A stretch of 63,855 bases of DNA, counting the filler, from Reclinomonas americana ATCC 50394 (taxonomy: Eukaryota), in the NCBI GenBank assembly GCA_048213135.1. It is 14 parts of 14 records of this genome, joined end to end, with 100 filler letters (N's around TTAATTAATTAA, not from the genome) between each part and the next. Parts side by side here need not be neighbours in the genome. Positions count along the whole stretch, not along the records: positions 1 to 3,441 come from AFZH01017313.1; positions 3,542 to 6,643 come from AFZH01017314.1; positions 6,744 to 12,865 come from AFZH01017315.1; positions 12,966 to 19,398 come from AFZH01017316.1; 10 more parts are not named here. One strand, 5' to 3'. Below, one piece after another: positions 784-15,730 of the stretch. Each line of letters starts with the position of its first letter. Position 1 is the first letter of the stretch. The notes below the pieces were generated by a model. The model ran no database searches, had not been told where the DNA came from, and worked only from the letters and a program-made list of their open reading frames with translations. A program made the translations under genes and the position numbers.

Positions 784-1842
784 TCACCAATGCATCTCGG
801 GGTAACAGCCGAATCGAAAGAGCGCCGCTTCGGCCTCCTCCACCAAGAAGCACCGCAGCACCATCTCCGGCAGGCATCGCGCTTCGAATCCATCTTCTGC
901 TCCTCCTCCTTTCTGCATCTCCTGCACGGCTTGCAGAGCCCGTCGCGCACAATAGAGCTCACGGCCGACCAGGCCGTACAGCGAAGACCACACTCGCACA
1001 ATGCCGTCGGCGCCACCGCTCACAATGTGCTGTCCGTCGGGAGAAACGGAAACAGAGGTCGCAGGACCTTCTTGTCCCTCCAGCCGTCGCACCTCCACTC
1101 CGCTCGCCAGCGACCACACTCGCACTGTCGCGTCTTCACTCCCACTCACAACAAAGTGGCCATCGGGAGTGATGGCGACGGAACGCACCGCGTTAGTGTG
1201 TCCGTACAGTCGTCGCACCTCGTCACCACTCGCTAGTGACCACACACGCACTGCCGTTTGATCACCTCCACTCACGACATATTGGCCGTCTGGAGTGATG
1301 GCCACAGAGAGAACCCTGCCCAAGTGACCGTACACGAGTCGCACCTCCTCTCCGCTCGCCAGCGACCAAACGCTCACTGTCCCATCACGGTTACCAGTCA
1401 CGGCGTGCTGACAATCGGGTGTGACGGCGATCGCATGCATCACTCCAGAGTAGACCCCCAACTGACGCATTTTTTCACCGTGCAACACTCGCGCATAGCT
1501 GCCACCTGCGACAAACCGACCATCACGTGTGGCGGCGACGCACCACACCCATCCAAACCCCTCGAACCGTTGCACTTGCTCTCCACTCGCCAGTGACCAC
1601 ACTCGCACAGTTGTGTCATGGCTGCCACTCGCAATGTGCTGACCATCGGGAGTGACAGCGACAGCGGCAACCGATCCTCTGTGTCCCTCCAACCGTCGCA
1701 CCTCCTCTCCACTCGCCATCGACCACACGCGCACTGTTCTATCACCACTTCCGCTCACCACATGCTCACCGTCGGGAGTGAAGGCCACAGACATCACCGC
1801 ACCCGCGTGTCCTTTCATGCACATGGGTAGGAGAGACGACAT
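784..1842 (-). CDS. WD40 array copy 2 (7 WD repeats, third shortened, plus conserved C-terminal tail)
   Basis: 352-aa intronless ORF of GH..V.SVA.TPDGQH.VSG..D.TVRVWSLASG repeats; tail ...RCLPEMVLRCFLVEEAEAALFRFGCYPEMHW. Confidence 0.93.
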   Translation of the reverse strand: MSSLLPMCMKGHAGAVMSVAFTPDGEHVVSGSGDRTVRVWSMASGEEVRRLEGHRGSVAAVAVTPDGQHIASGSHDTTVRVWSLASGEQVQRFEGFGWVWCVAATRDGRFVAGGSYARVLHGEKMRQLGVYSGVMHAIAVTPDCQHAVTGNRDGTVSVWSLASGEEVRLVYGHLGRVLSVAITPDGQYVVSGGDQTAVRVWSLASGDEVRRLYGHTNAVRSVAITPDGHFVVSGSEDATVRVWSLASGVEVRRLEGQEGPATSVSVSPDGQHIVSGGADGIVRVWSSLYGLVGRELYCARRALQAVQEMQKGGGAEDGFEARCLPEMVLRCFLVEEAEAALFRFGCYPEMHW

Positions 1843-2029
1843 TGAACAGAGAGGGAAGGGTGGAAGGTGAGCGCAACGACGGGCGATGGAACGAAAGATG
1901 TGTGCGGGACGGACACGAATTCCTTCTTTGAAGTTCGTTGCCTCGTTGCCAAGGCCACGTTTTGCTATGTTTCTCTATGCGAGCGACAAGAACAAGAACA
2001 AGACTCTCGTGCCAGTTAGTTGCCTTCAT

Positions 2030-3106
2030 TCACCAATGCATCTCGGGGTAACAGCCGAATCGAAAGAGCGCCGCTTCGGCCTCCTCCACCAAGAAGCACC
2101 GCAGCACCATCTCTGGCAGGCACCGCGCATCGAATCCACTTGCTCCTCCTCCTCCTCCACCTTCCTGCATCTCCTGCACGGCATGCAAGGCCCGCCGTGC
2201 ACTGTCGAGCTCACAACCGGCCAGGACGTACGGCGACGACCACACTCGCACAGTGCAGTCGGCTCCGCCGCTCACAATGTGCCGCCCATCGGGAGAGACG
2301 GCAACGGACCGCACCCGTCCAGTGTGACCGTAGAGCCGTCGCACCTCCTCCCCGCTCGCCAGGGACCAGACACTCACCGACCAGCTGTCAGCGACTCCGC
2401 TGACAACGTAATCTCCACCGGTGGAACTCGTGTGCCCACAGAATTGATGCACCTCCTCGCCACTCGCCAGTGACCACACACGCACCGTGTTGTCCAGACT
2501 CCCACTCACGACGTGCTGATTGTCGGAGGTGACGGCCAGCGACATGACCTCTCCCTTGTGGCCTTGATTGCGACGAACTTCTTCACCACTCGCCAATGAG
2601 TACACTCGTATCGCACTCCCACTCCCGCACACTACGCGCTGGCCGTCGGGGGTGACCGCCACAGACAACACCCAGTTAGCTTGTTCCTCCATACGCCGCA
2701 CCTCGTCACCACTCGCCAGTGACCACACTCGCACCATCCTGTCCGAGCAACCACTCACCACATGCTCGCCGTCGGGTGTCACGGCGACAGAGTACACAAT
2801 CCCATAGTGCCTATCAAACCATTGCACCTCCTCGCCACTCGCCAGTGACCACACTCGCACCGTCTTGTCATGGCTGCCGCTCACGATGCGCTGCGAGTCG
2901 GGAGTGACAGCGACACACATCACCCAGTGCGCGTGTCCCTTCAGTCGCCGCACAAGCTTTCCACTTGCCAGTGAATGCACGCACAGTGTCTTGTCCTTGC
3001 TGCCACTCACAACATGTTGGCCGTCGGGAGTGATGGCGACGCACATCACTGCACTCTGGTGCGCATTCAGGCACTTGTGAGGACGAAAGGGAGTGGCTGC
3101 TGACAT
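2030..3106 (-). CDS. WD40 array copy 3
   Basis: Probable start MSAATPF at 3106 within ORF 2030..3232; 7 WD repeats, the sixth internally deleted; tail ends like copy 2. Confidence 0.92.
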   Translation of the reverse strand: MSAATPFRPHKCLNAHQSAVMCVAITPDGQHVVSGSKDKTLCVHSLASGKLVRRLKGHAHWVMCVAVTPDSQRIVSGSHDKTVRVWSLASGEEVQWFDRHYGIVYSVAVTPDGEHVVSGCSDRMVRVWSLASGDEVRRMEEQANWVLSVAVTPDGQRVVCGSGSAIRVYSLASGEEVRRNQGHKGEVMSLAVTSDNQHVVSGSLDNTVRVWSLASGEEVHQFCGHTSSTGGDYVVSGVADSWSVSVWSLASGEEVRRLYGHTGRVRSVAVSPDGRHIVSGGADCTVRVWSSPYVLAGCELDSARRALHAVQEMQEGGGGGGASGFDARCLPEMVLRCFLVEEAEAALFRFGCYPEMHW

Positions 3107-14413: not shown

Positions 14414-14650
14414 GGGGGAGGGTGGGAAAAGAGAGTGAGTGGGGAAGGGAGCGCTGTGAGTGCTCCCAGACGACGGATGTGAAATGCATGTGAGGACGCT
14501 GTACATGTCCGTCCAACAACGTCGACTTGTCGCTCGGCTGACAAAGCCACTGATTCGGCTATTGCGGGAGGTCAAGCACAAACTCGACGCGTGTGAGACA
14601 AGGACAAGAGTTTCACTGACGATGAATGAGGTATGCCTTCCGAGCAAACT

Positions 14651-15730
14651 TCACCAACACATGTCGGGATTCGCGCTGCAGCGGAACAGCACCACTTCCG
14701 CCTCCTCCACAATGAAACAGCGCAGCACCATCTCCGGCAGGCAACGCGACTCCAGCTCTTCTTCTTCTTGCAGTTGTTGCTGCAATTCCTGCACGGTGTG
14801 CATGGCCAATCGCGCTGCGTGCAGCTCACACTGAGCAAGGCCACACGGCGAGGACCACATGCGCACCGTGTTGTCATAGCCGCCGCTCACAATGTGCTGG
14901 CCATTGGGTGCGACGGCGACTGATTTGACCCATCCAGTGTGGCCCTCCAGTCGCCGCACCTCGTCTCCACTCGCCAGTGACCACACGCGCACGGTCTTGT
15001 CACCACTTGCGCTGACAATGAACTGGCAGTCGGGTGTGATGGCCACGGACCACACCGTGCTTGTGTGGCCCTCGAATCGGTGCACCTCCTCGCCACTTGC
15101 CAGGGACCACACAATCACAGCAAAGTCATGACCCCCGCTGACAATGTGCTGACCGTCGGCGGAGACGACGACACACATCACGGAATTATCGTGCCCCTGC
15201 AGCTGTTGCACCTCCTCCCCACTTGCCAGTGACCACACCCGTATCGTCAGATCGAAACTTCCACTCACCACGTGCTGACCGTCGGGAGTGACAGCGACCG
15301 ACAGCACCCAGCCCCTGTGCCCCTCCAACCGCCTCACCTCCCCGCCACTCTCCATCGACCACACTCGCACAGTCCGGTCCGCGCTTCCACTCACCACGTG
15401 CCGACCATCGGGAGTGACGGCGACCGAAGACACCCACCACGTGTGACCCGTCAACTGTCGCACTTCGTCACCACTCTCCATCCCCCACACTCGAATGGTC
15501 TTGTCATTCAAGCCGCTCGCACTGACCACGTGCTGCCCGTCGGGAGTGACGGTGACGTGGCGCACCTGGTCGGTGTGTCCCTCCATGCGTCGCACTTCTT
15601 CGCCGCTCATCAGCGACCACACGCGCACAGTCATGTCCTTGCTGCCGCTCACCACGTGGCGACCGTCGGGGGTGATGGCGACGGACCACACGCCGTCAGT
15701 GTGGCCCAGGAGGCTCTTGTGGGAGGTCAT
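14651..15730 (-). CDS. WD40 array copy 12
   Basis: Probable start MTSHKSLLGH at 15730; 7 WD repeats plus tail ...FRCSANPDMCW. Confidence 0.93.
   Translation of the reverse strand: MTSHKSLLGHTDGVWSVAITPDGRHVVSGSKDMTVRVWSLMSGEEVRRMEGHTDQVRHVTVTPDGQHVVSASGLNDKTIRVWGMESGDEVRQLTGHTWWVSSVAVTPDGRHVVSGSADRTVRVWSMESGGEVRRLEGHRGWVLSVAVTPDGQHVVSGSFDLTIRVWSLASGEEVQQLQGHDNSVMCVVVSADGQHIVSGGHDFAVIVWSLASGEEVHRFEGHTSTVWSVAITPDCQFIVSASGDKTVRVWSLASGDEVRRLEGHTGWVKSVAVAPNGQHIVSGGYDNTVRMWSSPCGLAQCELHAARLAMHTVQELQQQLQEEEELESRCLPEMVLRCFIVEEAEVVLFRCSANPDMCW

Follow-up and report, generated by a model that had tools for sequence, protein, structure and literature searches.

Repertoires that join a large set of variable binders to a constant box are known for the F-box, BTB and SOCS modules. 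The BC box reads (S,T,P)LxxxC/S/AxxxHydrophobic and is followed 8-23 residues later by a Cul2 box of the pattern hydrophobic-P-x-x-hydrophobic-x-x-x-hydrophobic (PMC3355856), poxviral F-boxes may be reduced to one or two helices (PMC4353913), and the receptors of the CUL4-based cullin-RING ligases (CRL4) bind DDB1 by means of a helix-loop-helix that shows very little sequence similarity (PMC13061254). In DCAF1 this element lies N-terminally and spans about 30 residues (PMC6821201), and DET1, a link between DDB1 and E2 or E2-like proteins, carries a helical hairpin that binds E2 enzymes (10.1101/2024.06.08.598067). Here we analyse a 63,855-nucleotide stretch of DNA (the window) from Reclinomonas americana ATCC 50394 (assembly GCA_048213135.1; 14 contigs joined by 100-base spacers), where an array of WD40 propeller genes that spans four consecutive genome contigs carries a constant C-terminal tail. 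This tail is most likely an undescribed, lineage-specific domain on a very large family of proteins, and most likely serves as an adaptor box.

A predicted C-terminal hairpin on WD40 propellers

A six-frame scan of the window detected 11 tails with the motif LPE[MLIV]VL, all of them on the minus strand between positions 784 and 14854, with none in the rest of the window. A first-pass annotation of this DNA had reported a constant tail behind the WD40 copies, and we observe the same arrangement: nine of the 11 tails lie in frame behind a complete propeller in a single open reading frame (ORF), the other two (3266-3441 and 6510-6643) are cut by assembly gaps, and an alignment of the nine complete tails has 22 invariant columns. 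The single-ORF genes code for about 350-365 residues, with seven Pfam WD40 repeats recognised in seven of the nine genes and six repeats in the other two. All 11 window tails contain LPE and 10 of them end with the final tryptophan, the copy at 4119 terminating early. The linker, visible in 10 window copies, is 7-19 residues long and is acidic or Gly/Gln-rich. The annotation had described it as a variable linker coded by a GAG/GAA/GGA microsatellite; the variation in length is confirmed, but a clear GGA/GAG run is present in only some of the copies.

The structure of this module was predicted with AlphaFold2, with residues numbered as in the protein of the gene at 5300-6361. When modelled alone with an 83-sequence alignment, the tail forms a two-helix hairpin with helices at residues 3-24 and 32-55 of the tail (predicted local distance difference test score, pLDDT, of 80). 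The model of the whole protein has a propeller at residues 7-293, with 28 strands in the seven four-stranded blades of the 7-bladed WD40 fold, which is followed by helices at 295-317 and 324-347 (mean pLDDT 93.8, predicted template-modelling score 0.89). The tail is thus predicted to be an antiparallel hairpin, about 55 residues long, whose acidic tip loop varies in length, and in both models, which represent the unbound state, the LP residues are followed by a single 24-residue helix. Fold matches to the propeller were strongest for the highly repetitive WD40 propellers 2ymu (Z 47.0, root-mean-square deviation (rmsd) 1.3, 284 residues aligned) and 5yzv (Z 46.8, rmsd 1.2, 283 aligned) at 40% identity; the likeness is that of the propeller, as these alignments end at residue 293 and do not cover the hairpin. 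A fold search with the tail model gave generic hairpins among the matches listed (best Z 9.4, rmsd 2.3, 59 residues aligned; 25 chains at Z of at least 8), and no F-box, SOCS or DCAF entry stands among these listed matches, a result that excludes none of these families. Foldseek with the same model gave no match in either PDB or BFVD at E≤0.001.

Sequence conservation was analysed in a set of 31 tails that together represent the classes described below. A309, L325, C332 and F333 are invariant in this diverse set, and E302, A312, V329, L330, R331, E336 and A338 are present in at least 90% of its tails, giving a shared core of LxxxVLRCFxxE[DE]A together with a stripe of small residues on helix 1. 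Positions 325, 328-330, 333 and 334 carry large hydrophobic residues in 94-100% of rows and are distributed over helical-wheel angles of 20 to 320 degrees. From this distribution we infer that one partner helix cannot bury the whole of this hydrophobic ring, which would leave L330, F333 and residue 334 exposed for an outside partner. The most conserved residues of the hairpin are located at its far end, near the loop. The LPE and the terminal PDLxW, which the annotation had described for every copy with a visible 3' end, do hold for the window copies but are class-specific and neither is family-wide in the genome; 66 out of 222 genome tails have no LP proline and yet retain the core.

The contrast between tail and propeller is evident from the mean entropy over 53 genes. 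Specifically, helix 2 has the lowest value of the protein (0.60 bits), helix 1 (1.14 bits) is near the rest of the propeller (1.09 bits), and the sites on the top face of the propeller have the highest values (2.17-2.78 bits). This upholds the earlier statement that conservation is stronger in the tail than at the variable WD surface sites. Since dN/dS over all pairs was saturated (dS near or above 1), we analysed independent close pairs of genes drawn from 114 genes. The ratio of nonsynonymous to synonymous differences per site (pN/pS) in helix 2 was 0.13, 0.16 and 0.22 in three bins of 11, 9 and 9 such pairs, and in the two more distant bins the top-face sites reached 0.67-1.15 of the gene-wide pS. 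These values suggest relaxed or diversifying selection on the top face of the propeller.

The window genes belong to a much larger family. Across the genome, LPExVLRCF searched as a DNA pattern gives 538 exact matches as compared to none for a reversed control, indicating that the abundance of the motif is not a matter of chance. A second class, in which LVD replaces LPE, was retrieved with a divergent tail in a search that gave at least 150 matches, the best 30 loci of which were checked and are of the LVD class. A third and dispersed class, PLPxxVLRCF, has 60 exact genome matches (control 0). The assembly contains both haplotypes: a further contig aligns collinearly with the window (91-96% identity), and the Skp1, F-box and cullin matches are mostly paired in the genome. 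The approximately 750 raw places therefore correspond, very roughly, to at least 370 tail genes per haploid set, pseudogenes included. Core identity among 220 tails is 78% within the LPE class, 83% within the LVD class and 50% within the PLP class, and 42-54% between classes, a pattern that we read as an old dispersed form (PLP) with two recent amplifications (LPE and LVD). The residues that precede the core differ strongly by class (RCLPE, W[IV]LVD and EPLP), yet the core is identical in all three. Six contigs (C56, C89, C115, C176, C492 and C7502) carry arrays in which LVD-class genes are mixed with short-tailed LPE genes whose first exon has four codons. An extra N-terminal domain was sought in the subfamily spaced at about 3 kb, which apparently has the four-codon first exon only.

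Comparison with F-box and SOCS-box modules

The annotation had offered an F-box, as in poxviral ANK-PRANC proteins, or a SOCS box as possible identities of the tail. There are several likenesses to the F-box and PRANC systems: two of the three tail classes start with LPxxVL..F, the C-terminal location is that of ANK-PRANC proteins, and the family is expanded with variable binding domains. However, the tail has no profile similarity to the F-boxes of its own genome, as hhalign of the tail profile against 11 ordinary F-boxes returned a probability of 0.5% over 7-8 columns. None of the 31 diverse tails matched the Pfam families F-box, F-box-like, PRANC or SOCS_box at E≤10, and none of five window tails matched the first three at that threshold. 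The position 12 residues after LP is E or D in all 53 genes compared, whereas most of the F-boxes of the genome carry a core hydrophobic residue there. The tail also differs by its conserved partner helix ahead of LP. An F-box starting from LP would be expected to contribute two or three short helices, where AlphaFold2 predicts the one long helix for the unbound tail. Given that poxviral F-boxes can be reduced, a remote F-box likeness is possible, yet membership fails on the features tested.

A similar outcome was obtained with the SOCS box. WSB1, WSB2 and other receptors with SOCS or VHL boxes resemble the tail genes in having WD40 repeats followed by a C-terminal helix-linker-LP. Using box definitions from PMC3355856 and PMC13061254, with the Cul5 box scored as LP-hydrophobic-P-xx-hydrophobic-xx-[YF]L, we found that 8 of 222 tails carry a strict BC box, that 3 of 211 have leucine where the BC-box leucine would lie, and that 0 of 222 have a Cul5 box. 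The Cul2-box pattern, which is very degenerate, is the only one that fits; it occurs in 155 of 222 tails, 7-19 residues past helix 1, and is absent from the LVD class. The tail is thus unlike these receptors in lacking the BC-box leucine and the Cul5 box and in having a proline that is dispensable in one large class. SOCS_box had no match in the genome, where only four candidates were scored. Neither identity offered for the tail was borne out, and the alternative that the annotation had left room for, a new domain, fared better: a constant, adaptor-like C-terminal box on variable propellers that is probably new.

Several cullin-RING ligase subunits are encoded in the genome. A clear CUL4 (E 3.5e-39 to CUL4A) and a CUL1-like cullin are present among about eight cullins in all. 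Four related cullins of unclear class (L262, L264, L265 and L266), two of them in tandem on one contig, represent a possible lineage-specific duplication. A Skp1 gene is present, split over exons and contigs, together with a divergent Skp1_POZ gene at L055:1464-1874 and a second divergent Skp1-like gene at L053. We take the L055 gene, both ends of which resemble Elongin C, to be Elongin C-like from its C-terminal motif and the genome scan; when read through its intron this candidate had no match in Pfam, PDB or the databases searched. The F-box set of the genome is small: of 60 candidates scored, 52 matched at E≤1, and most of these form allele pairs.

Searches beyond this genome gave few relatives. 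The 83-sequence profile gave three matches among 1.84 billion representatives, namely a Reclinomonas americana EukProt protein derived from expressed sequence tags (ESTs) and two single-contig propeller proteins with the same tail. The closest gene in the fraction of the family that was compared shares 80% identity with the EukProt protein, whose EST origin points to transcription of at least one family member in Reclinomonas americana. A word-index protein search had no hit among 82 candidates with one tail and one among 8000 scored with a broad profile, the ESM Atlas gave no usable match to the tail, PHROGs gave none for three tails, and of two PDB sequence searches one gave none and the other three chance matches (E 4-7). 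We found no description of the tail family or module in the open literature, a coverage that stops short of subscription papers and supplements.

Other carriers of the hairpin and its possible partner

Although most carriers are propellers, the hairpin is also observed elsewhere. Upstream WD40-like frames are present in 25 of 27 distinct PLP-class tails checked (a further 20 PLP-class loci were left out), many of them intron-split and very divergent, with Pfam checked for a subset. The remaining two tails belong to an unrelated multi-exon tandem family in which the module is internal, with about 100 residues after it (L251:121-6101); apart from a weak N-terminal hint of DUF6205 (E 0.075), nothing in Pfam or PHROGs could be assigned to this family. 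In addition, a gene with the fold of an E2 enzyme ends in the hairpin tail (L160:629-1572; tail hidden Markov model E 3e-12, UQ_con E 1.4e-4). One intron is predicted in this gene, its second allele (L164) is likewise intact, and its protein has weak PDB sequence matches, mostly to E2 enzymes. In our reading of its sequence, His appears to replace the Asn of the HPN motif and cysteines lie near the active-site position. The occurrence of the hairpin on divergent WD40 genes, on an E2-fold protein and inside an unrelated family indicates that the module is portable but overwhelmingly tied to propellers. A small cluster of E2-like genes is also located about 10 kb from a WD40-tail array (contigs C303 and C78), with no tail found on them.

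We favour, at slightly less than even confidence, a role of the hairpin as a docking module that links the variable propellers to a shared partner in the ubiquitin system. The variable top face of each propeller would bind a target of its own, and the conserved LxxxVLRCFxxE[DE]A surface of the hairpin would plug the protein into one shared putative partner, such that the family would constitute a repertoire of ubiquitin-system substrate receptors with a new box in place of the F-box or SOCS box. A ubiquitin-ligase role is plausible from the E2-fold carrier and the receptor-like layout. As a guess by analogy, the candidate partners rank as a DDB1-CUL4-type adaptor ahead of the E2-fold protein or an E2, with a lineage-specific ligase subunit last. 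The first of these draws on the DCAFs (DCAF1, DCAF12, AMBRA1 and DET1), which have a helix-loop-helix beside a 7-blade propeller, as is predicted for the tail genes, and tolerate low sequence similarity (PMC13061254, PMC6821201).

Several observations weigh against a ubiquitin-system docking role. The tail hairpin differs from the DCAF1 element described in PMC6821201 in being C-terminal, about twice as long at about 55 residues and equipped with a long acidic tip loop. The WDxR motif, frequent though not universal in DCAFs, is present in 4 of 104 full ORFs. The sole ubiquitin tie of the tail family is the one divergent E2-fold carrier, which has a UQ_con score of 21.9 against the Pfam cut-off of 27 bits, and the tail of this carrier adjoins the amplified class in a tree of short sequences, so that the gene may be a chance recombinant. 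As to diversifying selection on the top face, the value relative to gene-wide pS drops to 0.24-0.36 among the closest gene pairs, which are mostly allelic, and the top-face pN/pS is below 1 when measured against the pS of the same sites, with 0.28-0.36 for the closest pairs. As to the terminal location, both ends of a closed 7-blade propeller exit on one face, and a C-terminal hairpin could therefore occupy the place of the N-terminal one of a DCAF.

Among the other explanations, we consider it unlikely that the hairpin is a homotypic oligomerisation module, in which two hairpins form a four-helix bundle and propellers pair with each other, as avid or combinatorial dimers, or with the E2-fold protein. 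The hydrophobic ring on helix 2, the small residues that line helix 1 (A309 in 100% and A312 in 90% of tails), the identical surface kept by the E2-fold protein and the generic coiled-coil hairpins and bundles matched by the fold would all agree with such pairing, but a core that is identical across the RCLPE, W[IV]LVD and EPLP classes suits a fixed outside partner at least equally. A complex prediction of a tail homodimer scored 0.01; it was computed without an alignment and with an uncertain fold, and is evidence neither way. Docking of the hairpin on a shared partner outside the ubiquitin system, with a function in signalling, cell death or trafficking and with the propellers as intracellular sensors, is rather doubtful. 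A variable top face and a constant tail do not specify a pathway, a metacaspase gene lies within the window array and the internal-module tandem family has no recognisable ubiquitin link; against this, the sole identifiable non-propeller carrier is E2-like and the metacaspase adjacency is seen at the window locus and its allele only.

That the tail is a degenerate box of known type with Elongin C or Skp1 as its ligand, be it a BC-box/Cul2-box of the VHL/SOCS kind or an F-box cut short, appears improbable. The WSB-like layout, the Cul2-box pattern, the encoded Skp1 and divergent Skp1_POZ genes and the existence of one- or two-helix poxviral F-boxes (PMC4353913) are in its favour, as opposed to the rarity of the BC box and its leucine, the missing Cul5 box, the proline lost from 66 of the 222 tails, the acidic residue after LP, the failed hhalign and Pfam comparisons and the one long helix. 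Least probable is that the hairpin is a mere structural cap that stabilises the propeller. Helix 1 does begin right after the last strand and is modelled more confidently on the propeller than alone, but the same hairpin occurs on an E2 fold and within a non-propeller family, and its best-conserved residues are at the far end by the loop.

The window array and the repertoire it belongs to

The array occupies contigs AFZH01017313.1 (positions 1-3,441), AFZH01017314.1 (3,542-6,643), AFZH01017315.1 (6,744-12,865) and AFZH01017316.1 (12,966-19,398), with every WD40 gene on the minus strand. The annotation had placed it at 784..14860; the tails are indeed located there, but the last gene reaches 15730 and a metacaspase gene breaks the array. 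At the left edge, a WD40 gene at 1..595 (ORF 2..718) has its 3' end and tail past the edge of the contig and window. It is followed by a 7-blade gene with its tail in a single ORF at 784..1842 (tail 784..987, with LP of helix 2 at 873) and by a gene at 2030..3106 with six Pfam repeats and one degenerate blade, whose tail (2030..2239, LP at 2119) has a Gly-rich linker. The tail at 3266..3441 (LP at 3355), which is cut by an assembly gap, has the linker with the longest GGA run, and probably belongs to the same gene as the frameshifted 5' part of a WD40 gene at 3542..4067. This frameshift is absent from the allelic contig (L021), where the copy is in frame, and represents either a haplotype-specific loss or an assembly error. 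A divergent WD40 gene at 4119..5186 has a shortened tail without the terminal W (4119..4298, LP at 4196). The modelled 7-blade gene at 5300..6361 has the tail with the shortest linker, of 7 residues (5300..5485, LP at 5389), which is the tail that was also modelled alone. The tail at 6510..6643 (LP at 6599) retains helix 2 only before the assembly gap.

The metacaspase gene, which has an intron and an approximate start and lies outside the module, interrupts the array on the opposite, plus strand at 6744..8471 (Peptidase_C14 E 3.6e-9 and 1.4e-9), and the same arrangement is present in the allelic contig. Beyond it are five 7-blade WD40 genes with tails, at 8773..9834 (tail 8773-8967, LP at 8862), 10164..11258 (tail 10164-10370, LP at 10253), 11582..12673 (tail 11582-11785, LP at 11671), 13328..14413 (tail 13328-13525, LP at 13417) and 14651..15730 (tail 14651-14854, LP at 14740). 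A tRNA-Ser(AGA) gene at 16046-16127 is located just upstream of the last of these. Elsewhere in the window, minus-strand frames at 36597-37910 resemble a putative non-LTR (long terminal repeat) retroelement polyprotein, and open frames at 44508-47800 resemble putative response-regulator receiver domains plus a cyclase-like stretch.

A further-reaching proposal, which we regard as unlikely at present, is that the main receptor repertoire of this jakobid runs on the new box, with all its members either docking on DDB1-CUL4 or pairing tail-to-tail with the E2-fold protein. If docking is on DDB1-CUL4, by way of the C-terminal helix-loop-helix, the E2-fold protein would be a fused analogue of DET1/COP10, and if pairing is tail-to-tail, the E2-fold protein would reach targets with no conventional ligase involved. 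It appears that a deep-branching eukaryote has a variable-binder repertoire, of several hundred genes in each haploid set, built on a module for which we found no Pfam, PDB or literature match. Depending on its partner, the hairpin would define either a new receptor class of the ubiquitin system or a different effector of an intracellular recognition system.

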